Assembly (NCBI GenBank): GCA_965215185.1 | Contig: OZ244034.1 | Location: forward strand, 2,752,001-2,816,000 | Direction: 5' to 3' | DNA: 64,000 nucleotides | Source of the DNA: Acidimicrobiia bacterium | GTDB lineage: Bacteria; Actinomycetota; Acidimicrobiia; Spongiisociales; ZC4RG35 | Shown: piece after piece, positions 51,621 to 63,646 of the stretch | Position numbering within the stretch: position 1 is the first letter of the stretch | How the letters are laid out: every line of letters starts with the position of its first letter | Program-made: the position numbers and the translations under genes | Notes under the pieces: model-generated | The model's database searches: none | The model's input: the letters and a program-made list of their open reading frames with translations, nothing else | What the model was told of the DNA's origin: nothing

Positions 51621-51727
51621 ACTAATGACGAGCAATGAGCAAAAAAAACCGGTATTAGGACGAGACGGAACACCATCAAGGGCCCGGAATATCCCAAATC
51701 GACCGGTTTGGCATTATTGTGCGGCTT

Positions 51728-53299
51728 ATGTCCGATCTATCCCTTTGGGAGCCGGGGGAAGAATTAGAGCTTCCCAGCTTCCCATCCGCTGTCTTGGGCT
51801 ACCAGCGCAAGGCCGTCGACCAGTACCTGAAGAGCCTCGGGGAGACCAGAAACGCTCGTGCGACGATCCTCGTTTATCCCGACGCCCCGGTTCCAACCGA
51901 GCATTTGAACCGCTACCGGGATCTGGGAAGAGAGATAGGAGACTTGCTTTCGGTAGTACAAGAGACGGCTCGAAGGATCAGGGAGCAGGCTGAACTCGAC
52001 GCAGACCGCTGGCGTGGTGAGGCCACAACCGAAGTGCAAACCACAACCGCCGAGGCGCAGGCCATCGCTGAGGAACTCCGGTCAGCAGCCTGGGAAGTGG
52101 CCACTCAGATGATCGCGCAGATTCGAGACCTGGAGACCGAAACCTATCGCAATGTTGAAAAGGAATCACAGGAGATCATCGCCGAGGCCGAAAACGAGAC
52201 TCACCGTATTCGGGAGGACGCTCGTCGGAGAGCCGAGGCGATCCACAGCAACGCCAATGTGGAATCTCTGGAGGTGGAGGAGAGAACCAGAGCCCTTTGT
52301 GATCAGATGATTGAATCCGCCGAGCAGCAGGTCTTGGCCATTCAGGAGAGGGTGCTGGCGCTGGAGCGTCATCGTGACCAACTCTTGGAGGAGATCGGAG
52401 GAATTCGTTCAGGCGCCACGCCGATCGGTGTCAAGTTGGTTGATCAGACCGGTGGTTTGATCTATCGAACTTCCCCACCGGTAGAGGATCCCACCCATGT
52501 AACGCCTCACCATGAGATGTCAGGGTTGGTGAAGGTGATCGCCCCACCCGGGCTGCCGAAAGAAGACCCCCCAAGTCAACCCCATGTGGAGCCGCCCCGA
52601 CAACCGGCGCCGACAGTTGTCGAGGACACGCCTTCCCAAGATGTGGGAGACGAACCGGAAGGCTCTTCCTCTTCCCACTTCCAAGACTTGTTTTCTTCTC
52701 TCCGGCAGATCCCATTCGGCTCTTCGGAGCCAGTGGTGAGGCGCAAACAGGCCTCTGCACAACGTTCCGCTCCCCAGATGGGGGAGGAAGAGTCACGCAA
52801 TCTTAAAGAAGAGAGGTTGCTCCCGATATCCAACCACTTTCTCCGTCTGTTCAAGAGAATCTTGACCGAGGAGCAGAACCTGGTGCTGGAGGGAATACGA
52901 ACCGGGGAGTTGGTATGGGGAGTAGATGGGGTGGACGGGCGATTGCGTTCCCATCTGGAGATGCTTATGGAGCAGAGTTGGCTGGCGGGCCACAGCGCCG
53001 CGGAGCGGATGATTCGACAGAATATCCCCAAGCCGCAGATGGCTCTGGGAGGCGAAACAGGTTTCGCTCCCCAGTTGGTCTCCGATGTCAACGACGCCCT
53101 GGGATCGGCAGTGCCCTCGGAGAACGTCACCCAGCGGAGCCTGATCGCTTCTCGGATGTTTCGGGTGTGGAGAAGCGAGAAACTAGAGCGCCAAGTGCAG
53201 GAAATCAGCACCAAGTACTACCAACAAGGCTTGGATGGGTCGCTTGGAGCGGCAGGTGTTTCCCAGGATCGTGGGCCTAGACCAGTTGAGGTGGGTTGA
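51728..53299 (+). CDS. DivIVA-like coiled-coil protein
   Basis: N-terminal FPSAVLGYQRKAVDQYL resembles the DivIVA motif; long E/A/R coiled coil; Pro-rich linker. Confidence 0.6.
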   Translation: MSDLSLWEPGEELELPSFPSAVLGYQRKAVDQYLKSLGETRNARATILVYPDAPVPTEHLNRYRDLGREIGDLLSVVQETARRIREQAELDADRWRGEATTEVQTTTAEAQAIAEELRSAAWEVATQMIAQIRDLETETYRNVEKESQEIIAEAENETHRIREDARRRAEAIHSNANVESLEVEERTRALCDQMIESAEQQVLAIQERVLALERHRDQLLEEIGGIRSGATPIGVKLVDQTGGLIYRTSPPVEDPTHVTPHHEMSGLVKVIAPPGLPKEDPPSQPHVEPPRQPAPTVVEDTPSQDVGDEPEGSSSSHFQDLFSSLRQIPFGSSEPVVRRKQASAQRSAPQMGEEESRNLKEERLLPISNHFLRLFKRILTEEQNLVLEGIRTGELVWGVDGVDGRLRSHLEMLMEQSWLAGHSAAERMIRQNIPKPQMALGGETGFAPQLVSDVNDALGSAVPSENVTQRSLIASRMFRVWRSEKLERQVQEISTKYYQQGLDGSLGAAGVSQDRGPRPVEVG

Positions 53300-54657
53300 T
53301 CGGTAGGTCCTCTTTTGGCGTATTGGTGGCTTTGGTGCTGGTCGCCTGCGGCGGGACGGGCGAACAACAGGAGACTGTCCCCCAAGGCCCGCCGGTTACA
53401 GAAGGAGCGCCCCCAGAGGAGAGCATTGAGCCGACCGAGGAGCCGCTGCCCCAAGTCCCCGAAGTGGCCGAGGTTCCTGAGGCCCCACCGTTCTTAGATC
53501 TATTGTTGGTGACCGGTCCGGATGGGGAGATAACGGTGGTCAGCCCCGATGGAACGGTTACTCGGGAGTTGCGCGTTTCTACTGGACAGAGCGGTCCGAG
53601 TCTGCAGCCTACCTGGGCGCCGACTTTCGTTGATGGCCGTCGTCTTGCGGCGTGGAGCGAACTCAACGATGACGGGGCTTTCGCGATCACTTTGGCTGAC
53701 ATTGAGAACGCTGAGATAGAGACGTACCTCTCGCCCGTAGCACCCTTCTACTACTACTGGAGTCCCGATGCCACTCTGCTGGCATTCTTGGGACAGAACG
53801 CCTTTTCCCCATTGCAGATGGGCATGGTGGACTTGCCGAGGGATGAGGTATACGCAATTGGTGACGGGCAACCGTTCTACTTCGCCTGGCGATCTGACTC
53901 GAATGCCATGGTCACTCACATAGGCGATGCCATGTCCTTGCTCGCCCGCACTGACGGCGGTTGGTCGTCGGACACGCTCTCTCTTGTACCAGGGCTCTTT
54001 CAAACCCCGGCCTGGCTCCCCGACGACCAAATCATCATCACTTCCCCGGTTTCACAGGGGGAGGTCGAAGTGGGTTTGTCAGGAACGCCCAGTGCTCAGG
54101 GCGACCGGTCCGGGCACCGTCTGATCGTAAGTGACTTGGAAGGTAGGTCTATCAGGACCTTGGCCGAACTGGAAGGGCCGGTTAGATTCCAGGCGGATCC
54201 GTTGGGAGAACGGGTGGCGTTCACAGCCTCTGAAGGTCCTCTGCGGGTGATGGATCTCGCCGACGGCGCCGACGTGGCCGTTTCCGAGGGCAAGGTGGCG
54301 GCCTTCCAGTGGAGCCCTGAAGGAGGCAGGCTCCTTTTCATGGAGGTGGACAGCCAGGCGAAGGCGTTGGCGCCCAAGGTTTGGGATGGCCGCGAAACTC
54401 TGGTATTCCCCTCCTTTTACCCAACTCGCGTCTTCCTTCTTCAATATCTGCCGTTTTGGGACCAGTACTCCCACAGCCTTACCTTATGGTCCCCGACCGG
54501 GGAGGCGTTCACATATCCGTCAGTCTCCCCGGGCAGCGGTGAGGGCCGGATCATGGTGCAGCGTCTCGACGATCCCGGGCCTTTGGAGGTGAGCAAAGGA
54601 GTGTTTGCCAGTTGGTCTCCCACTCCGTCGGACCTTTTGGTCACCCCCGATCCATAA
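53296..54657 (+). CDS. lipoprotein with TolB-like beta-propeller repeats
   Basis: lipobox LVAC; repeated PTWAP, WSPDA, WSPEG, WSPTG. Confidence 0.75.
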   Translation: MIGRSSFGVLVALVLVACGGTGEQQETVPQGPPVTEGAPPEESIEPTEEPLPQVPEVAEVPEAPPFLDLLLVTGPDGEITVVSPDGTVTRELRVSTGQSGPSLQPTWAPTFVDGRRLAAWSELNDDGAFAITLADIENAEIETYLSPVAPFYYYWSPDATLLAFLGQNAFSPLQMGMVDLPRDEVYAIGDGQPFYFAWRSDSNAMVTHIGDAMSLLARTDGGWSSDTLSLVPGLFQTPAWLPDDQIIITSPVSQGEVEVGLSGTPSAQGDRSGHRLIVSDLEGRSIRTLAELEGPVRFQADPLGERVAFTASEGPLRVMDLADGADVAVSEGKVAAFQWSPEGGRLLFMEVDSQAKALAPKVWDGRETLVFPSFYPTRVFLLQYLPFWDQYSHSLTLWSPTGEAFTYPSVSPGSGEGRIMVQRLDDPGPLEVSKGVFASWSPTPSDLLVTPDP

Positions 54658-54963: not shown

Positions 54964-55326
54964 TTAGTCCCAGCCGAGCTGATGGAGGCGCTTTTCAGAG
55001 AAACCCAGGTAGTGGCCTAGTTCGTGCAGGAGGGTGCGGCGGATCTCCTTTTCGGTCTCGGAGCGAGAAAGCCCCAACTCGAGATGGGCCAGACGATATA
55101 CGCGAATCTCGTCGGGGAGGACTCCCCAATAATCGGCCGCTCGATCCGGCAGCGACACCCCCACATATTCACCCAACAGCATTTCCCGGTCCTCGCCCTG
55201 GCACTCCTCAAGCGGTGGCGAATCCATCGCCACCACCAACACATTGTCCATTATGGAGGTGATCCATTCGGGTAGCTCGGTAAGGGTCCGGCCTATCACT
55301 TCCTCGAATTCTTCGGTGCGCATCAT
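54964..55326 (-). CDS. minimal zincin metallopeptidase (Zincin_1-like)
   Basis: LLGEYVGV...PDEIRVYR...TLLHELGHYLG. Confidence 0.88.
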   Translation of the reverse strand: MMRTEEFEEVIGRTLTELPEWITSIMDNVLVVAMDSPPLEECQGEDREMLLGEYVGVSLPDRAADYWGVLPDEIRVYRLAHLELGLSRSETEKEIRRTLLHELGHYLGFSEKRLHQLGWD

Positions 55327-55727
55327 CCTCCGTGCAGAGCCAGCACGGCCTCTATTTCCACCACAGCTCGTGGGTCGGCCAGTCCGCCGATTACCAAGAG
55401 AGTGCTAGCCGGATAATCGCCATGTGGATACCAGTCTGAAAAGACGCGGTCTCGCCCGCGGTAGAAACCCTCCTGGGCTCCCTCGGTCACATAGGTGCGA
55501 AGGCAGGCGATGTCAGAAGGTGAAGCTCCCACCGAGCCCATCAGCACGGCGAGATTGGCGAAGGCGTCACAGGTTTGGGAACCGGGGTCCTCGGCCATCG
55601 TTGCGTCCTGGCGACGCCCGGTTTGGCCCGACAGCCAGGCCAGGGAGGCGCCGGCCTTCGCCAGGGAGACCAGCGAATAGCGGCCGGTGGGGTGGCTTAC
55701 ACCCGGCGGATTGCTTCTTGACAACAT
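55323..55727 (-). CDS. RidA/YjgF family protein
   Basis: YS...LSGQ...Q...NL...PASTLL..GLADP..VEIEAV. Confidence 0.85.
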   Translation of the reverse strand: MLSRSNPPGVSHPTGRYSLVSLAKAGASLAWLSGQTGRRQDATMAEDPGSQTCDAFANLAVLMGSVGASPSDIACLRTYVTEGAQEGFYRGRDRVFSDWYPHGDYPASTLLVIGGLADPRAVVEIEAVLALHGG

Positions 55728-55825: not shown

Positions 55826-56854
55826 ATGACGACCCGCACTCGAACTGCCACCAGTCACTATGAGGTACAGAAGAAACGCCGCTCTGACGAGTTGGAGCAT
55901 CGCCTGCATGTGGTGCGGGGGTCGGAAGTGGTTATGCACCAGACTCCCCGGGGAATCGACCGCGGGGTGTTGGTGGGGGCCGATGGTGACCGACCCAGCC
56001 TGGTGCTCGACGCTCACCGTCACGGAATTGAGCCGGGTGCGGTTTCAACGATCCATCGTCACTCGTGGGATGCCATCATGTTTGTCACCTCCGGCCGGGG
56101 ATGGACCGAAGTCAATGGCCGTAGATACGACTGGCGAGCATGGGATACGGTGTTTCTCCCGGCCTGGGCTTGGCATCGTCACGGAAACGAGAGCGATTCA
56201 CCGGCCACCTATGTCACTTTCGGCTCCGAGCCCTTGGCCGAATTGGTGGGGATGGCCATCATCGAGGAGGGCGGAGATGTTTCCTTCGACGAGCTTCCCC
56301 CGCCCCCGGCGGTAGCTTCCCCCGGGATGGGCTCGGACCCCTACACCCGACGGATTCAGCGTTTGGCCCATCGCCAGCAGGCCTTTTCGGAGACTCGCAT
56401 CATTACCGCCTTCGATGACATCAACTTCCGGGTGACTCCCCGCGGTGCCCGCAGCGGCTTTCTGATTGACCGGAGCATCGGGTACCGCACCGGCGGATTG
56501 ACCGCGGTGATGCATCAATTGGCTCCCGGTCTTTACCAGTCCCGGCACCGTCACGGAGGAGAAGCCTGGCTGTACTGCACGACGGGTCAGGGTTACAGCG
56601 TAATCGACGGGGAACGCTACGACTGGGGCCCGGGGGACATGGCGGTAGTGGACCATTGGGCCTGGCATCAGCATTTCAACGCCTCCGATTCGGAGATTGC
56701 AGCCATTATCCGGGTACATAATGTCGACAGTCTCTACATGGGGATGCGGGCTCTGCTCGATCCCCTGCCGCTTTTTGAGGAACCCGAGAAGCTGGACTCC
56801 CCCGACCTGAGCGGAATGGAGTGGCCCCCTCCCGACGCGGGCAGACCCGAGTGA
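55826..56854 (+). CDS. bicupin, gentisate 1,2-dioxygenase-like putative ring-cleaving dioxygenase
   Basis: two cupin metal motifs: HRHSWDA...PAWAWHRH and HRHGGEA...HWAWHQH. Confidence 0.75.
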   Translation: MTTRTRTATSHYEVQKKRRSDELEHRLHVVRGSEVVMHQTPRGIDRGVLVGADGDRPSLVLDAHRHGIEPGAVSTIHRHSWDAIMFVTSGRGWTEVNGRRYDWRAWDTVFLPAWAWHRHGNESDSPATYVTFGSEPLAELVGMAIIEEGGDVSFDELPPPPAVASPGMGSDPYTRRIQRLAHRQQAFSETRIITAFDDINFRVTPRGARSGFLIDRSIGYRTGGLTAVMHQLAPGLYQSRHRHGGEAWLYCTTGQGYSVIDGERYDWGPGDMAVVDHWAWHQHFNASDSEIAAIIRVHNVDSLYMGMRALLDPLPLFEEPEKLDSPDLSGMEWPPPDAGRPE

Positions 56855-57756
56855 ACAGCCGCGGCGTCGCCCGGCAGGAAAACATCCGCCAGGATCGCTA
56901 CGGGTTTCTGCGGTGGAGGGTCCTCCCACAGCCGGGCTGGGAGCAGTGGTGGGATCGCATCGTGGTTCCCGAGGGGATCAAACAACGGCTGGATGATTAT
57001 TCTCGCCAGTCGATCCTCTTGCGGGCAAAATTCACGCAGGTAGGGATGCCACTGCATGGACTGGTTCTTCTGTATGGGCCGCCTGGAACCGGCAAGACTT
57101 CGCTGGCCAAGGGTTTGGCGAACCGTTTGGGGCAGCATTTCGGTGAGATCATCTTCGCGGAGGTGGACGCCCACGCCATGCCTTCGCAGATGTTGGGCGA
57201 AAGCCAGCGCAACGTGGCCAATCTGCTGGAAAAATCCATCCCCGAACTGGCTGCCAAGGAGATGCCGGTGGTGGTGCTGATCGACGAAGTCACCTCAATG
57301 GCGGTCAACCGGCAGATGGCAATGGGCGGTACCGACCCGGTGGACGTTATCCGCGCCACCGACGCCGCTCTCCAGGGGTTGGACCGATTGGCCTACGATC
57401 ATCCCAATGTCCTGTTGATTGCCACCTCCAATTTAGAGGGCGCTATCGACGAGGCGGTGATGAGCAGGACCGATCTGGTAGTGGAGGTACCGGTTCCCGA
57501 CCTGCAGGCCCGTACCGAGATCCTCGCTGACAGTCTCTCCGAACTTGGCTCGGTGCTCAACTCTCAGTTCTCGGGTGTGAATGTAAATCGGAGTGAACTC
57601 CATGAATTCGCAGCCGAGTTAAATGGGCTGTCCGGTCGTCGAATACGCAAACTGGTCTTTGAGGCGGTGTTGGCAGTGCAGTCCCATGAGGGTGCTCTGG
57701 GTGTTGGTCATCTCCGGTTGGCGGCCGCCCGTTCCACTTCCCTGGTGAGGATGTAA
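56851..57756 (+). CDS. AAA+ ATPase, Pch2/TRIP13-like
   Basis: Walker A GPPGTGKTSL, Walker B VLIDEV, sensor-1 ATSN, AIDEAVMSR; GTGA overlap with the cupin stop. Confidence 0.85.
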   Translation: MNSRGVARQENIRQDRYGFLRWRVLPQPGWEQWWDRIVVPEGIKQRLDDYSRQSILLRAKFTQVGMPLHGLVLLYGPPGTGKTSLAKGLANRLGQHFGEIIFAEVDAHAMPSQMLGESQRNVANLLEKSIPELAAKEMPVVVLIDEVTSMAVNRQMAMGGTDPVDVIRATDAALQGLDRLAYDHPNVLLIATSNLEGAIDEAVMSRTDLVVEVPVPDLQARTEILADSLSELGSVLNSQFSGVNVNRSELHEFAAELNGLSGRRIRKLVFEAVLAVQSHEGALGVGHLRLAAARSTSLVRM

Positions 57757-59048
57757 TGACAGCGCTGGTTACCGAGATACTCAGCCGTATAGACGAGTCG
57801 CGAGAAGATCTGGCCGAATTGGCCCTTCGTTTGGGCAACACTTACGGCCCATTGGGTAATGAAGAACCAACCGCGCGGGCGGCGCATGAGTGGTATCTGG
57901 AAAACAGGATGGAAAGCCACTTGGTTCCCATGATCGAAGGCAGGGCTAGCACTGTGGGAAGGGTGCGGGGGTCGGGTGGGGGAAAGTCGCTGATATACAA
58001 CGCCCATCTCGACACCGAGGCGTCTGGACCTGACTACGACCTGTTGATGGCGGTGCCAGATCCCAACCGGGTGGGTGCTCGACGAGAAGGCGACAAAATC
58101 TTTGGGCACACTGTTCAAAATGACCGAGGGTGCATGTCCGTTCAGATGATTGCCGGACGGGCGCTGCAGGATGCTGGTGCTCCCTTGCGGGGTGATCTTC
58201 TGCTCAAGTCGGCTGCGGGAGAGACCGGATCGTCACCAGTGGACGAATACCAGGGAGCCCGTTACGAGTCGAAGGGATTCGGCACCAACTGGCTGCTGGA
58301 GCATGGGTACGGTGCCGATTACGCAGTGATCGCCGAGACCACTGACTTTTCCGCATCCTGGGTGCAGTGCGGCGCCGCCTATTTCAAGATAACCGTCCGG
58401 GGCCGGAATATGTACACCCCTCGCTTGGAGCGGCCATCGAAGCTCTCCGAGCATCCCAACGCCATCGTGCGAGCGGGCGTTCTGATCGGGGCCCTGGAGC
58501 AGTGGGCGGTCGAATATGAAGCATCGCGGGCTATCGAGACCCCTTGCGGCACCATGCGACCCAAGTCGCAGATAGGAGCGATGAGAGGCGGAATACCGTG
58601 GCGGCCCAACCGGTCCTCGACCTATGCGGCCCTATATATGGATGTGCGTACCCGACCGGGGGACCTTATCACGGAGATCACCGCCTCTCTACAGCAGGCG
58701 ATAGCCGACACCGGCTTGGATGCTGAATTGCGACTGATAATGTTCAAACCCGGTTATGCCGCCTCCTCCGAGAAGATCAGGCCCCTATTGGGCGCCATCG
58801 GCGACGCTCATCGCCATGTCCGGGGAGAGGAGATGCCGGAGCGGGCCGAATCGGCGGTGGTCTCGATGTGGCGGGACACCAATGTGTACAACCGGGTCGG
58901 CATCCCTGCCCTCACCTTCGGTCCGAGCCGGGGCCGGGCGGCGGTGCAGGGGACCGGTTACATGCATTTGGACAACATGTTGGAGGGGGCCAAGATCTAC
59001 GCTCTCACTGCCCTATCCATCTGCGCCGCGGTGTCGCCCTCCTCGTGA
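57756..59048 (+). CDS. M20/ArgE-DapE family metallo-hydrolase (divergent)
   Basis: GSGGGKSLIYNAHLDT, NDRG, IAETT, ITVRG, NAI, GIPALTFGP; TAATG coupling. Confidence 0.8.
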   Translation: MTALVTEILSRIDESREDLAELALRLGNTYGPLGNEEPTARAAHEWYLENRMESHLVPMIEGRASTVGRVRGSGGGKSLIYNAHLDTEASGPDYDLLMAVPDPNRVGARREGDKIFGHTVQNDRGCMSVQMIAGRALQDAGAPLRGDLLLKSAAGETGSSPVDEYQGARYESKGFGTNWLLEHGYGADYAVIAETTDFSASWVQCGAAYFKITVRGRNMYTPRLERPSKLSEHPNAIVRAGVLIGALEQWAVEYEASRAIETPCGTMRPKSQIGAMRGGIPWRPNRSSTYAALYMDVRTRPGDLITEITASLQQAIADTGLDAELRLIMFKPGYAASSEKIRPLLGAIGDAHRHVRGEEMPERAESAVVSMWRDTNVYNRVGIPALTFGPSRGRAAVQGTGYMHLDNMLEGAKIYALTALSICAAVSPSS

Positions 59049-60235
59049 CGCTACCCCGTCCGGTTGGATCACTTCTTCGGTACGAGTGGATGGCGCATCT
59101 GGGGGGAATGGCGGTAATAACCGGCGTTCAACTGATCTCTCCCGCCCTCCCGGCCCTAGCCGAACGCTTCGCCCTGTCGGAGTCGGAAGTCTCTTTGGTG
59201 ATCAGCGTCTATCTGATCCCAGCAACCTTGGCTTCGGTGCCGGCGGGGTTTTTGGCTGACCGGTTCGGAAGACGGTGGGTGTTCGGGACGGGCCTGTGTC
59301 TGTTCGGTGTGGCGGGGGTGCTCCTGCCTGTGGTGGCGCAAGAGTCCTACGGGGCTCTACTGGTGATCAGGTTCGTGCAGGGATTGGGATTCGCTCCTGC
59401 TTTTCCTCTCACCATCACCATTCTGGGTGATCTCTACAAGGGTCCGAAATTGGTGGGCGCACTAGGGCGGCGGTCGGTATTGATGTCGGTGGCAGACGGC
59501 GGATACCCCATCCTGGGAGGGATCTTGGTGGGGCTTTCGTGGTTGGCGCCTTGGTATCTGCAGGCCGTGGCTCTTCCGATCGGATTGATGGTGCTGTTCA
59601 GTTTTCGGGATTGGGTGCCGCTGGGCACTCAGGGTGGCATGGGCGGTTTGCGCTGGTTGTGGCGCTCGGTGCACTCCAAAGGCATCCTGTCTCTCCACTA
59701 TGTGAGTTTTCTCCGATTCTTCGCCAAATTCGCTTTGCTCTCGTACCTTCCGCTTCTGCTGGTGATATCCCGGGGCTTGACAGCCGCCCAAGCCGGTTTG
59801 ATATTGGGCACGGCCGCCTTGTCTGGGACCTTGGGAGCGGCCATGAGCGGATGGTTGGCCCGCATTGGCCCCGCATCTCGGTGGGTCATTGCGGGAATGG
59901 TCATGCAGGGTTTGGGATTGGTGATAATGGTTTTTGTGGCCCAGATCTGGATGCTGATGACGGTGGCAGTGTTTTACGGGCTGGCCGACGGCGTCCTCGG
60001 GACGTTTGTCAACGCTTATCTGGCGTCGGCGACCGACCCCGAGCACCGGGCCAGTCTGGTAGCCGCCAATGGCGCCATAAAGAATTTCGGAAAGCTCTTG
60101 GCGCCCCTCCTGTTAGGGGTGCTGGTGCTGGTGGTGCCGCTCTCGGTGGGGTTCACCGCAGTGGCGGCTGTGTTGGTGATCTCGGCGCCTGCCGCGGCGC
60201 CGTTGCGGGCCTACGATTCCCGGATTTCAAGATAG
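59045..60235 (+). CDS. MFS transporter
   Basis: ISPALP, GFLADRFGRR, RFVQGLG; GTGA overlap. Confidence 0.88.
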   Translation: MTLPRPVGSLLRYEWMAHLGGMAVITGVQLISPALPALAERFALSESEVSLVISVYLIPATLASVPAGFLADRFGRRWVFGTGLCLFGVAGVLLPVVAQESYGALLVIRFVQGLGFAPAFPLTITILGDLYKGPKLVGALGRRSVLMSVADGGYPILGGILVGLSWLAPWYLQAVALPIGLMVLFSFRDWVPLGTQGGMGGLRWLWRSVHSKGILSLHYVSFLRFFAKFALLSYLPLLLVISRGLTAAQAGLILGTAALSGTLGAAMSGWLARIGPASRWVIAGMVMQGLGLVIMVFVAQIWMLMTVAVFYGLADGVLGTFVNAYLASATDPEHRASLVAANGAIKNFGKLLAPLLLGVLVLVVPLSVGFTAVAAVLVISAPAAAPLRAYDSRISR

Positions 60236-60433: not shown

Positions 60434-60618
60434 CAATCGTTGCCGAGAGAGGTGACGGAGTGGGGTCGTACGGCGCCAAAGGCAGGGGAGAGGGAACTCT
60501 CAACCCGATTGGAGGAGCCACTGCTGCGGCTGTGGCCCGGGCGATAGGCCGTTGGCCCGATAGATTGCCGCTCACCCCCGAGCGGGTGTGGCGCCTGATG
60601 AGAAATGGTGACAGCTAA
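60430..60618 (+). pseudogene. C-terminal remnant of a xanthine dehydrogenase-family molybdopterin-binding subunit
   Basis: GDGVGSYGAKGRGEG...AAAVARAIG...LPLTPERVW; TAA overlaps the GntR ATG. Confidence 0.8.
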
Positions 60619-61310
60619 TGGATTTAAGCCGTTTGGAGCCGTGGCTAACAGAGGCGCGCCAACGTTTTCGCACAGCCGAGGATATGGTCACCGGGGTTCT
60701 CAGGGAAGCGATCATCACTGGCGTGCTCAGCCCCGGTGAGCGTCTTCCTCAAGATCAACTCGCCGAATTGTTGATGGTGAGCCGTATGCCGATCAGAGCG
60801 GCGCTGCGTCAGTTGGACTCCGAGGGCTTGGTGGTCAACATCCCCCATCGGGGCGCCACAGTGCGGGAGTTATCGCCCACCGAGTTACGGGAGTTGTACG
60901 AACTGAGAGTGGTGGTGGAGTGCTTTGCCGTCCGACGCTCGGTGGTGGCCGCCTTCCCCTCCGACCTGCTCGAATTGGCGGAGTTGGCCGAAAGCTGTGA
61001 GAGCGCCGAGGAGGGGGAGGAGTGGATTCAGCAAAGATGCGCCTTCTACCGCCGCCTGTACGCCATCGGGAACGGCGTCAGGGTGGTGGACACGATCATG
61101 ACCCTTCGAGCGGAAGTCAGCCGTTATCTGCTGGAAAAGAGATTCTGTCCGGGGTGGCATCGTGAACTACTGGAGAATCTGGCCACGGCGGATACGGAGG
61201 GAGCCGCCCGGTTCTTGGAAGACCACCTGATGGAGGTCCTGGAGTCCATGGAAGAAGAGATATCGGTGGCGGACCGCTGGAACAAGGCGATTGACGGGAC
61301 CAAGAAATGA
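60618..61310 (+). CDS. GntR-family (FCD) transcriptional regulator
   Basis: LREAIITG.LSPGERL...VSRMPIRAAL..L.SEGLV..PHRGA; C-terminal FCD-like region. Confidence 0.9.
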   Translation: MDLSRLEPWLTEARQRFRTAEDMVTGVLREAIITGVLSPGERLPQDQLAELLMVSRMPIRAALRQLDSEGLVVNIPHRGATVRELSPTELRELYELRVVVECFAVRRSVVAAFPSDLLELAELAESCESAEEGEEWIQQRCAFYRRLYAIGNGVRVVDTIMTLRAEVSRYLLEKRFCPGWHRELLENLATADTEGAARFLEDHLMEVLESMEEEISVADRWNKAIDGTKK

Positions 61311-62258
61311 AAGAGGAGCAGGTCGTCTTCTACAGGGGCGGGGAGCGGGTGGTTGGGGATCTGTATCTTCCTGAGGCCGGAAAGGGTGAACCTCGCCCGG
61401 CGGTGGTGCAGGGGACCGGGCTGGATGGGTTTGCGCACCGCCCGGCTCTATCGTCCCTATCACGAGGCTTTCCTGGCGGCGGGAATCGTGGTCCTCGTCA
61501 TCGACTACCGAGGGTGCGGGGACTCCGATGGCGACCCGCTGGGGTTCTCGCCCCGCCGACAACTGGAGGATCTCACCAACGCCGTGACCTATCTCACCAC
61601 CCGACCCGAGGTGGACCCCGACCGAATCGGGGTGTTTGGATCAGGGGGGACGGGGGGCGGCAACGCCGTATGTCTGGCAGCCACCGACCAGCGGGTGCGG
61701 TGTGCGGTGGCCCAGGTGCCCGTCTCCGACGGCCGGGATTGGCTGCGCAGGATGCGACCCGCGTATGAGTGGTATGAGTTCCTGGAGCTACTGAAGGCAG
61801 ACCGGGTTCAAAGAGTCACCACCGGCCAGGGGGATCTGGTGCACTCCCAGCAAATCATGATCCCCGCTCCCGAGCGGAGGGCCACCACCATCAAAAAGGA
61901 CGTGGATTCCCGGGTTCCCACCCTGCTGCCGTTGGCTGCGGCGGAAGAGATTATGGCCTATAGACCTATCGACGTGGTGGACCGGATAACTCCGCGACCA
62001 CTTCTGATAGTGGCGGTGGAAGACGATCCGGTCACTCCCACCCAGCACGCGGTGGATCTGTACGAACGGGCGGGTCCGCCCAAGAAACTGATCATTCAGC
62101 GGCACACCACGCACTACGCCGCCTATCGACAGTATGGGAAGACGATCATTCCCCAGATGGTGGATTGGTTTCGCATACATTTATCGACAACCCGGATACA
62201 GGCTGTTGAAGCGACCACAGGTAAAGAGAAGCACATGGTTATCAAGGAGATCGCATGA
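61307..62258 (+). pseudogene. alpha/beta hydrolase (X-Pro/acetyl-xylan esterase-like) with a 1-nt frameshift
   Basis: N-terminal VVGDLYLP..PAVVQG in one frame, then GPGWMG..DYRGCGDSDG..DPDRIGVFGSGGTGGG in the next; shift at the GGGG run near 61411-61414. Confidence 0.7.
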
Positions 62259-63646
62259 ACATCACCAGAGTTGTCAGAGGAGCCTCGGTGGTAAGGGACG
62301 GGTCTTTGACCAAGATGGACATTCTGGTGGGGGGTGAGCGAATCGTCGGTCTTACCTTGCCGGATACCATCACGCCCCCTTCCTCGGCCGAGGTGATAGA
62401 GGTCGATGGGCTGTGGGCCCTCCCTGGAGGGGTAGACGTGCATGTCCACCTCCGGGAGCCAGGCTACACCCATAAAGAGGATATCAAAACCGCCACCGCC
62501 GCGGCGGCAGCGGGCGGATACACCACCGTGTTCGGGATGCCCAATGTGAAGCCGCCCACCATGACCGCCCCCGATCTGTGGGCTGCCTTGGCTCTGTACG
62601 ACCAAAAGAGCCTGGTCGACTACAACCACAACCCTGCCGCCAAGCAAAGAGAAGAATTAGCGGAGATGGCCGAGATGGGGATCGCCGCCTATAAAATCTA
62701 CATGGTGGCGGACACCGGGCGGTCCTATCCGCACCCGGCCGCCATCGGGGTTCATGACCACGGCCACCTCCTGGAGGCGATGCAGACCGTGGCCGCCACC
62801 GGGTTGCCCCTGATGGTGCATCCTCATGACCAGCGTATCGAAGAAGTGGTGGAGCAGCGTTTCTGGGAGAAGGGGGATCGGTCTCCGGAGGCGTATGCCC
62901 GTACCCTGATGACCGGGGACGGGATCCTGTGGGACACCGCCACCTCCTTGTTACTCCGTATGGCGGAGGCCACCGGCTGTCGGTTGCACCTCGTGCATAC
63001 CACCACCAGCCGTCAGGTGGAGATGATCCGGGCGGCCCGAAAGCGGGGGGTGAAGGTTACCTGTGAGGCAAATCACTGGACATTGTTCCTGGCTACCTGG
63101 GAGTTGGTGCAGGAACTGGGGCCCTATGTTCTCTCCTATTGGGTGCCCGAGCACCATCAGCAGGCCGTTTGGGAAGCCTTGGCGGACGGCTCGATCGACA
63201 TGGTCGCCTCCGATCACGCTCCCCATACCAGGGCTGAAAAGGATGTGGGGTATCAGGACATGTGGGCCGCTCACACCGGTTCCCCCGGCGTTCAATATCA
63301 GCTGCCGCTGCTGATAGATGCCTATCACCAGGGCCGTATCTCCCTCGCTCGGCTGGTGGACGCGGTAGCCGCTGCTCCCGCCCGTCTGTTCGGCCTCTCC
63401 CGAAAGGGCCGGATCACCCCGGGCGCCGACGCCGACCTGACCCTGATCGATCCCAACCGGGAATGGACCATCACCAACGATTCAGTCCTCTCCAAGATCG
63501 ACTGGACTCCCTACCACGGACGGACCATCCGGGGAGCTGTGGAGCGCACCATGGTGCGGGGAACCGACGTATTTGTTGGTGGAGAAATAGTGGGGGAGCC
63601 CGGCCACGGCCGCCAAGCGGTTCCCGATTCGATGGAGAGGAACTAA
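62255..63646 (+). CDS. cyclic amidohydrolase (dihydroorotase/allantoinase family)
   Basis: DVHVHLREPG, MPNVKP, AYKIYM, LHLVH, ASDHAPH, GADADL, WTPYHG. Confidence 0.9.
   Translation: MNITRVVRGASVVRDGSLTKMDILVGGERIVGLTLPDTITPPSSAEVIEVDGLWALPGGVDVHVHLREPGYTHKEDIKTATAAAAAGGYTTVFGMPNVKPPTMTAPDLWAALALYDQKSLVDYNHNPAAKQREELAEMAEMGIAAYKIYMVADTGRSYPHPAAIGVHDHGHLLEAMQTVAATGLPLMVHPHDQRIEEVVEQRFWEKGDRSPEAYARTLMTGDGILWDTATSLLLRMAEATGCRLHLVHTTTSRQVEMIRAARKRGVKVTCEANHWTLFLATWELVQELGPYVLSYWVPEHHQQAVWEALADGSIDMVASDHAPHTRAEKDVGYQDMWAAHTGSPGVQYQLPLLIDAYHQGRISLARLVDAVAAAPARLFGLSRKGRITPGADADLTLIDPNREWTITNDSVLSKIDWTPYHGRTIRGAVERTMVRGTDVFVGGEIVGEPGHGRQAVPDSMERN

Follow-up and report, generated by a model that had tools for sequence, protein, structure and literature searches.

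A Trip13-family AAA+ ATPase encoded beside a bicupin in Acidimicrobiia, a candidate remodeler with a metabolic partner

What might a Trip13-type AAA+ ATPase act on when no HORMA protein is found to be encoded with it? Prokaryotic Trip13 has been described, as far as the accessible parts of the reports go, only in operons with HORMA and nucleotide-signalling genes (10.1101/514885; 10.1101/694695; PMC7159879), and a literature search whose coverage left aside subscription journals, figures and supplements returned no description of a Trip13 protein paired with a cupin. The question is raised by a gene at 56851 to 57756 of a 64,000-nucleotide stretch from an Acidimicrobiia bacterium (assembly GCA_965215185.1, contig OZ244034.1, positions 2,752,001 to 2,816,000 of the forward strand). 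This whole stretch is referred to as the window, its coordinates are used throughout, and the genome to which it belongs is one contig of 3.12 Mb with 95.4% completeness. The gene product was found to be a true Trip13/Cap6-family AAA+ ATPase with intact ATPase motifs. Its gene stands in strict synteny and co-occurrence with an upstream gene for a bicupin that begins with a pattern of alternating threonines, and no HORMA or CD-NTase is detectable. On analysis, the ATPase would be a remodeler dedicated to this bicupin, with reactivation or maturation of the iron enzyme as the most plausible outcome, a reading in which our confidence is middling. The elements that carry the argument are the following:

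55826..56854, plus strand: 342-aa bicupin of the gentisate/salicylate 1,2-dioxygenase class (two Pfam Cupin_2 matches, E 2.7e-28)
55826..55882, plus strand: residues 1-19 of the bicupin, its N-terminal tail (MTTRTRTATSHYEVQKKRR), with alternating Thr and then HY.(V/I)QKKRR; putative handle for the ATPase pore
56851..57756, plus strand: Trip13/Pch2/Cap6-family AAA+ ATPase, 301 aa, a single AAA module with a short N-terminal region (PADLOC PDLC00915)

Identity and ancestry of the ATPase

The open reading frame (ORF) at 56851-57756 on the plus strand gives a stop-free translation of 301 aa. Its GTG start lies within a GTGA shared with the TGA stop of the bicupin gene (56851-56854), and its TAA stop within a TAATG shared with the ATG of an M20-related gene (57754-57758). 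The chosen start is supported by the identical length of the proteins in database cluster P0002, which are 99% identical to the window ATPase. These overlaps, the length, the upstream bicupin and the downstream M20-related gene had all been described in an initial annotation made from the letters alone, and each was confirmed. The motif strings that it had listed are all present in the translation (RVLPQPGWEQWWDRIVVPEGIKQRLDDY, LLYGPPGTGKTSLAKGLA, EVDAHAMPSQMLGES, VLIDEVTSMAVNR, GTDPVDVIRA and NVLLIATSNLEGAIDEAVMSRTD), and the TRIP13 motifs that it had given for comparison match real eukaryotic sequences, among them the 'thyroid receptor-interacting protein 13' of Salpingoeca rosetta (P0270).

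The family membership was supported by profile, structure and motif comparisons. The PADLOC model PDLC00915 'TRIP13' matched residues 17-278 of the ATPase on profile positions 11-274 of 302 (E 2.9e-84, 281 bits). The Trip13 of a complete type III CBASS (an anti-phage signalling system based on cyclic oligonucleotides) in a sister species (genome G015, locus L031), which is 39% identical to the window protein, gave E 8e-106 on the same model. The AlphaFold2 model of the ATPase had a predicted local distance difference test score (pLDDT) of 88.2 and a predicted template modelling score of 0.87. When this model was compared with the PDB by Foldseek, ranks 1-10 were all C. elegans PCH-2, human TRIP13 or E. 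coli MS115-1 Trip13 (entries 4XGU, 5VQ9, 5VQA, 6F0X, 6LK0, 6P8V_C and 5WC2), while AAA proteins other than Trip13 began at 3e-14, about five orders of magnitude behind. The ATPase motifs comprise Walker A (G76-K82), Walker B (D145 and E146), sensor-1 (N194), a single arginine finger (R206) and sensor-2 (R263), with pore loop 1, PSQMLGES, at residues 111-118. In an alignment of 48 sequences, G76, G79, T80, G81, K82, E146, N194, R206, R263 and R266 were invariant, and D145 was present in at least 90%.

Several searches could also be read as showing a generic AAA+ protein with a superficial TRIP13 likeness and a chance gene order. Pfam detected only the general AAA family (E 1.4e-22), with AAA_lid_TRIP13_C below its cut-off at 0.0045, the best NCBIfam matches were proteasome ATPases and IteA, all far below their cut-offs, and a sequence search of the PDB placed Cdc48/p97 first by summed score. 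The last result arises because the scores of two Cdc48 domains (58 and 61 bits) were added, while the single domain of PCH-2 reached 109 bits. The PADLOC match, the Foldseek ranks, the tree support of 99-100 described below, and a gene order kept in 52 of 54 loci refute this explanation, which we consider scarcely credible. Hence, a position in an unrelated generic AAA clade, which the initial annotation had considered as a possible outcome, is contradicted by the profile, the fold and the tree alike.

The search for the usual partners of Trip13 was extended from the window to the whole genome. No HORMA protein was found there with six models (Pfam bacHORMA_1, bacHORMA_2 and HORMA, and PADLOC PDLC00881-883), and no CD-NTase with two (SMODS and one PADLOC cyclase model); the best matches of these models were at chance level, with E 0.07-0.17. 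As a positive control, the same HORMA search recovered the G015 HORMA protein at 4.3e-49. HORMA was also not found in four other carriers of the same genus, nor, with one model and in genomes whose completeness is not given, in five carriers from Chloroflexota and Verrucomicrobiales. These negative results apply to folds within reach of profile models, and a more divergent HORMA could escape them. Among the 9 neighbouring ORFs none matched a PADLOC model at E 0.01, the best being three marginal, chance-level matches at 0.027-0.034, and tblastn queries with the HORMA, cyclase and SAVED proteins of L031 revealed no CBASS gene in the 54 loci. The earlier claim that the locus is without HORMA or CD-NTase therefore holds for both the window and the genome within these models, and no cognate HORMA or CBASS locus was found elsewhere in the genome. 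The type III CBASS of G015, a member of the same genus, consists of genes for Trip13, two HORMA proteins, a cyclase and a SAVED-PD-(D/E)xK nuclease (L031:5977-10186). G015 also carries a cupin-linked Trip13, so that both paralogs occur in one genome.

To place the ATPase among its relatives, trees were built with FastTree on 144 rows and with IQ-TREE on subsamples of 64 and 71 of these rows. The 50 of 150 representatives that fell outside 250-460 aa were left out, and seven loci with cut or frameshifted genes (L054, L069, L070 and L081-L084) were dropped. Both methods set the ATPase ingroup apart from the outgroup AAA proteins with 99-100 support, the outgroup being small and made up of two AAA proteins of the window genome and L085. 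Eukaryotic TRIP13, identified through the Salpingoeca rosetta protein, was set apart in one clade (100 support). The cupin-linked proteins fall into a bacterial clade of 57 rows (97 support) as the group of the window, which branches first, a Chloroflexota group and a metagenome group, and this bacterial clade also includes a 21-row clade with all five relatives of known CBASS context; 36 bacterial representatives in the tree are without known gene context. The nearest relatives of the ATPase are thus the Trip13 proteins of two-HORMA CBASS, and the close kinship with the eukaryotic family suggested in the initial annotation was not borne out. When the cupin-linked rows were constrained to one clade, the log-likelihood difference was 22.4 and the approximately unbiased test did not reject the constraint (p 0.106). 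The pairing may accordingly have arisen once, or the cupin-linked groups may form a grade from which the CBASS Trip13 clade emerged. As the trees place cupin-linked lineages on either side of the two-HORMA CBASS clade, it is conceivable that the metabolic pairing came first and that the immune Trip13 of this clade was recruited from it.

The bicupin as partner and its threonine tail

The 54 loci were obtained in a scan of one genome per species with the ATPase alignment, and they span Acidimicrobiia, Chloroflexota/Limnocylindria, Verrucomicrobiales, Dormiibacterota and others. Directly upstream of the ATPase gene, 52 of them have a bicupin gene, whose product is 50-90% identical to the window bicupin. 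One of the two exceptions is a contig that begins at the ATPase gene (L055), and the other is a 27%-identical AAA protein, which lies outside the Trip13 family in the trees (L085). The distance between the bicupin stop and the ATPase start is -8 to +4 nucleotides in 46 of 50 loci according to our own ORF calls, which fits coupled translation. The two genes also occur together: with thresholds of E 1e-20 for the ATPase and E 1e-30 for the bicupin, an identical set of 11 among 61 related genomes was called for both. These carriers are 8 of the 16 other members of the genus and members of two further genera of the family, while the other families of the order had none (0 of 24). The order bicupin, ATPase, M20, major facilitator superfamily (MFS) transporter is kept in all ten orthologous loci, and when 401 genomes were sampled across the class, the bicupin was present in seven, each time with the ATPase gene directly downstream. 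The linkage to the cupin that the initial annotation had proposed is thus conserved.

A metagenome scan retained 80 loci, and gene context came from seven full-length relatives (39-43% identity) and one fragment, while the other 72 were generic AAA matches. Three of the seven have a divergent bicupin upstream (42-54% identical), and the other four belong to CBASS, with HORMA and/or cyclase genes downstream. Two long-read metagenome-assembled genomes of Chloroflexia (L082 and L084) and a metagenome contig (L096:50-1116) have the bicupin and/or the ATPase split over frames, which may be sequencing error or a sign of a pseudogene, and they were excluded from the alignments and trees. Extra cupin genes, whose products are 25-38% identical to the bicupin and which are without an ATPase of their own, were noted at L042:3580-4575 and L042:9290-9817, and also at L043, L049 and L074.

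The closest solved structures place the bicupin in the ring-cleavage dioxygenase class, with matches to gentisate 1,2-dioxygenase (3BU7, E 8.2e-18) and the 5-nitrosalicylate dioxygenase NaaB (8CH4, E 4.1e-7); as a member of this class it would cleave the ring of an ortho-hydroxy aromatic acid. Both barrels retain the His-x-His...His metal motif of the cupin class, and the residues H77, R78 and H79...H117, as well as H241, R242 and H243...H281/H283, are invariant in 44 sequences. The NCBIfam models for MabB (81 of 650 bits) and gentisate dioxygenase (70 of 442 bits) matched far below their cut-offs. The alignment of the bicupins is conserved to both ends. The C-terminal 30 residues (window 56759-56851; LFEE.P.LD.PDL...WP....GRP), which were modelled as coil, include the invariant G339, R340 and P341, and they are a second candidate docking element.

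The N-terminal tail of the bicupin combines conservation with disorder. In the 44 sequences, Thr is found in column 3 in 36 sequences and Ser in two, columns 5 and 7 are always Thr, column 9 is Thr in 26, column 10 is always Ser or Thr, and H11 and Y12 are present in all, followed by the invariant Q.KRR, while the even positions vary. Residues 1-11 had pLDDT values below 50 and are predicted to be disordered. Among the 5029 mechanically called ORFs of at least 150 aa in the genome, the bicupin is the only one with T.T.T.T in its first 14 residues, while the shorter T.T.T pattern occurs in 20. The same Thr tail is present in the divergent third cupin-linked group (L096), while the paralogous L042 bicupin without an ATPase has none. 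The HORMA2-like proteins of the four CBASS loci nearest to the window ATPase begin with similar tails, for example ...TRTHTATH.... In the accessible part of the study of Ye et al. (10.1101/694695), a His ladder in pore loop 2 of Trip13 binds Ser/Thr at the odd positions of the HORMA tail, HORMA N-termini keep Ser/Thr at alternate positions, and removal of the tail abolishes Trip13 action.

The ATPase side of the pair showed a group-specific feature. Pore loop 1 reads PS(Q/D/E)(M/L)LGES in all three cupin-linked groups and SA(S/E/A)(L/H)G in five CBASS-linked relatives. All of 120 close homologs had the cupin-type motif, as did 13 of 100 representatives with a single domain. Since the tail is disordered yet invariant, resembles those of HORMA2-like proteins and is accompanied by a group-specific pore loop, we propose it as the handle by which the ATPase would pull the bicupin. 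The course of events could then be as follows. The ATPase would be an active, predicted hexamer-forming remodeler of the Trip13/Cap6 type whose HORMA client was lost or never present, and it would be produced together with the bicupin from the overlapping genes. The ring would draw the exposed Thr tail of the bicupin into its pore, as CBASS Trip13 does with the HORMA N-terminus, and a few cycles of ATP hydrolysis would partly unfold the N-terminal segment. The most likely purpose would be to reset or reactivate the iron enzyme by freeing it from an oxidised or incorrect metal, from a dead-end ligand or from faulty assembly of its oligomer. In this way ring cleavage could be sustained in a pathway resembling the Naa pathway, with an aromatic aminohydrolase, a ring-cleavage dioxygenase and hydrolases acting in turn. 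Binding, threading and outcome are all inferred for the bicupin.

Several observations weigh against a dedicated reactivating remodeler. The ATPase evolves faster than the bicupin (50-82% versus 62-90% identity to the window copies), an uncommon difference for two closely co-adapted proteins. The window bicupin is without four residues (YWRQ-like), including a nearly invariant Trp, that are present in the 43 other sequences; the gap lies at window 55895-55910, about residues 25-26, and the protein is otherwise intact. In the DVHRAT stretch, the CBASS relatives and two of the three cupin-linked groups retain the His, where the group of the window has I, M or A; if this His, as a possible counterpart of E. 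coli His173 in pore loop 2, reads Thr, then that group is without the reader although the Thr pattern stays. The conserved tails of the bicupin could also serve oligomerisation or catalysis instead. Finally, the related dioxygenases 3BU7, 2D40 and 2PHD are, as far as is known, described without a helper ATPase (PMC10306065).

The same client could also be handled to the opposite end. The ATPase might dismantle the bicupin or hold it inactive, limiting a reactive or oxygen-wasting enzyme when substrate is lacking, and the synteny and the tail fit this explanation equally well. It also agrees with the role known for bacterial Trip13 in CBASS, which is the disassembly and inactivation of the client complex (10.1101/694695, accessible part), as when Cap6 turns off the complex of HORMA and CD-NTase. 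On the other hand, it seems wasteful for a catabolic operon to produce a dedicated inhibitor at a constant ratio from an overlapping gene, and neither a protease nor another degradation partner is kept next to the pair. We therefore regard such a post-translational off-switch or quality control as the main rival to reactivation, but as an unlikely one.

Catabolic setting and neighbouring genes

The other genes around the pair are the following:

57756..59048, plus strand: NaaA-like M20-family aromatic aminohydrolase, 430 aa (PDB 5K8M, E 1.3e-90)
58868..60235, plus strand: MFS transporter (Pfam MFS_1, E 6.9e-48); the start is not certain, as the mechanically called ORF reaches into the M20 gene
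55323..55727, minus strand: RidA/L-PSP family protein, divergent from the bicupin gene (Pfam Ribonuc_L-PSP, E 3.2e-10)
60618..61310, plus strand: GntR/FCD transcription regulator (Pfam GntR, E 3.6e-16; FCD, E 1.6e-12)
61353..62258, plus strand: alpha/beta hydrolase (Pfam Peptidase_S9/Abhydrolase matches)
62255..63646, plus strand: amidohydrolase-superfamily enzyme (Pfam Amidohydro_1, E 3.1e-24)

The protein downstream of the ATPase aligned over residues 5-424 with residues 7-422 of the 5-nitroanthranilic acid aminohydrolase NaaA (5K8M). Its NCBIfam matches to ArgE/DapE-type models, at about 1e-19 to 1e-21, were all below cut-off, and there was no Pfam match at E 0.01. From this NaaA-like identity the operon can be read as Naa-like catabolism of aromatic amines, and by its sequences the cluster looks like one for the breakdown of an amino-substituted aromatic acid through deamination, ring cleavage and hydrolysis. 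The further genes recur to different extents in related loci. The MFS gene comes after the M20 or the ATPase gene, the RidA gene is present in 9 of 10 orthologous loci and in some further loci of the group of the window, and the GntR/FCD protein, the probable regulator of the cluster, was found again. Copies of the alpha/beta hydrolase that are 45-65% identical lie near the pair in 16 of 54 loci, and amidohydrolase copies (50-64% identical) adjoin the alpha/beta hydrolase in related loci. At an Acidimicrobiaceae locus (L041:1307-5363, minus strand), genes for subunits of a molybdenum hydroxylase of the xanthine dehydrogenase type adjoin the pair, which hints at an N-heteroaromatic or hydroxylated aromatic substrate, and a luciferase-like monooxygenase gene lies near the pair at one other locus.

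The M20 enzyme was the second client considered in the initial annotation, and its linkage to the ATPase is looser than that of the bicupin. The M20 gene adjoins the ATPase gene directly only in the group of the window, where its products are 67-88% identical. The Chloroflexota have a different M20 protein (33-38% identical), one gene further on, behind the MFS gene, and there is no M20 gene near the pair in L044, L047, L079 and L089, although the DNA is present there. These four loci and the different Chloroflexota protein rule out M20 as a universal partner. Hence, the cupin part of the cupin-ATPase-M20 linkage proposed earlier was upheld, while its M20 part was not. The same applies to the more general idea of a Trip13-type remodeler in the service of metabolism, which agrees with the family membership, the cupin linkage and the catabolic setting, but not with the M20 enzyme as the protein served. 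The role as an activase or metal-loading chaperone that it had named is a putative one. As the M20 gene is loosely linked and the bicupin gene near-universal, the bicupin rather than M20 is likely the client of the ATPase.

These observations also bear on the explanation that the client is another protein, such as M20, the alpha/beta hydrolase, the amidohydrolase or a multi-enzyme complex, and that the bicupin is an adapter like CdnC for E. coli Trip13. The overlap of the M20 start with the ATPase stop in the window and the occurrence of an M20 gene within the fetched DNA of 42 of the 54 loci would fit, and E. coli Trip13 does bind the cyclase as an adapter besides its client (10.1101/694695, in the part accessible). 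However, there are the loci without M20 and the displaced, different Chloroflexota gene; moreover, the bicupin alone is universal and alone Thr-tailed, whereas the M20 protein starts with MTALVTEIL and has no Thr tail. Another client, with the bicupin as adapter, is thus distinctly improbable.

Alternatively, the bicupin and the ATPase could make up a module for defence or signalling that has no link to metabolism, for example a sensor pair outside CBASS or what is left of a decayed CBASS. Defence proteins are indeed the closest relatives of the ATPase, and the distribution of the pair in the genus is patchy (8 of 16 genomes), as it is for accessory genes. The neighbours, however, are catabolic in every group (aminohydrolase, MFS transporter, GntR regulator, hydrolases, molybdenum hydroxylase and luciferase-like monooxygenase), and the PADLOC search of the adjacent ORFs described above was negative. 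As the motifs of the ATPase are unbroken and shared between phyla, the remnant reading does not fit, and it was rejected on these motifs together with the catabolic neighbours. For the module as a whole we see only a very slight chance.

Metatranscriptome contigs of 212-362 bases that are 98-100% alike to the bicupin, ATPase and M20 genes were found in three runs of one study. The contig at the junction of bicupin and ATPase extends by fewer than 31 letters into the ATPase gene, and carry-over of DNA is possible, so that these contigs are a weak hint of expression of the cluster. Further upstream (window 51719-54657), overlapping genes encode a DivIVA/Scy-like coiled-coil protein (526 aa) and then a 453-aa protein without family match, a pair that is kept within the genus only. 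Behind the RidA gene lies a small gene for a Zincin_1 metallopeptidase-like protein of 120 aa (window 54964-55326, minus strand), which is present in most loci of the same genus and not in other groups.

Comparison with known systems

The closest known counterpart of the ATPase is Cap6 of the two-HORMA type III CBASS (L031), a kind that also includes the Pch2 of P. aeruginosa (10.1101/694695). The two share family and fold, at 39% identity, and both are about 300 aa long without the large eukaryotic N-domain. A single arginine finger together with a sensor-2 arginine is reported for two-HORMA and eukaryotic Trip13 in the accessible text of 10.1101/694695, and the window ATPase has both features. 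The product of a gene beside the two-HORMA CBASS Trip13 carries an alternating-Thr N-terminal tail, as does the window bicupin. The pore loops differ, with PS.MLGES in the window ATPase and SA..G in the two-HORMA CBASS Trip13. Unlike Cap6, the ATPase has a bicupin partner and catabolic surroundings, with no HORMA, CD-NTase or effector gene found in its operon or genome, and the window locus does not have the composition of a type III CBASS operon, with CD-NTase, HORMA and a cyclic-nucleotide-activated effector. It could be imagined that a ring-cleavage iron dioxygenase replaced HORMA as the client of Trip13 through the same alternating-Thr handle, so that the motor reads a portable tail and not the HORMA fold, an idea that we put forward tentatively and consider rather doubtful. 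If the bicupin is the client, it would be a simple second case in which the choice and grip of substrates by Trip13 could be studied, and a HORMA-less lineage in several phyla, tied to a metabolic enzyme, would broaden the known roles of Trip13 motors.

The eukaryotic TRIP13/PCH-2 proteins (4XGU, 5VQ9 and 6F0X) are the best structural matches of the ATPase, with E values of 7.6e-19 to 9e-16 and template modelling scores of up to 0.78, and the motifs around Walker B and GT(D/E)P.D.IR are common to both. The window protein is without the N-domain of about 100 residues of its eukaryotic counterparts, which are 409-431 aa long in our alignment, and its pore loop 1 has QML where eukaryotic TRIP13 has KWF. 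Eukaryotic TRIP13 has a HORMA client, while none was found for the window ATPase with the models used here.

The proposed logic of the pair resembles that of AAA+ enzyme activases. In Rubisco activase/CbbX, CbbQ-CbbO, NorQ-NorD and CoxD the ATPase gene adjoins that of the enzyme which is remodeled, and some of these activases pull on a terminal tail to restore or complete the active site. The likeness is one of proposed logic only, since these activases belong to clades of the MoxR/AAA_5 or Rubisco activase type. The AAA_5 model matched the window ATPase at 4.7e-5 versus 1.4e-22 for classical AAA, which places it outside the MoxR/CbbQ type, and no VWA gene was present among the neighbours scanned. 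We know of no activase of the Rubisco activase, CbbQ, NorQ or CoxD kind that acts on a cupin dioxygenase. If the dioxygenase has indeed replaced HORMA as client, the ATPase would be the first reactivase of the unfoldase type for a non-haem-iron dioxygenase, and if the proposed role is true, a new class would be added to the short list of ATP-driven enzyme activases.

The 1,2-dioxygenases of gentisate and of salicylate (3BU7, 2D40 and 2PHD) are, like the window protein, bicupins with His-x-His...His motifs. The similarity is distant (E 8e-18 at best), and the window bicupin aligns with the solved enzymes only from about residue 54 on, has conserved N- and C-terminal tails of its own and is accompanied by an ATPase. 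It keeps metal ligands in both barrels, which is also the case for the S. pomeroyi enzyme of the gentisate/salicylate class, according to the accessible part of its description (PMC10306065). For biodegradation work, the proposed role would mean, if true, that this dioxygenase family may require a co-expressed ATPase for its active form. The 5-nitroanthranilate pathway of Bradyrhizobium (NaaA, NaaB) likewise combines an aminohydrolase with a ring-cleavage cupin dioxygenase of the same class. It differs from the window cluster in that NaaB is a monocupin while the window dioxygenase is a bicupin, and in that the window cluster has a Trip13-family ATPase gene placed between the genes for the two enzymes.

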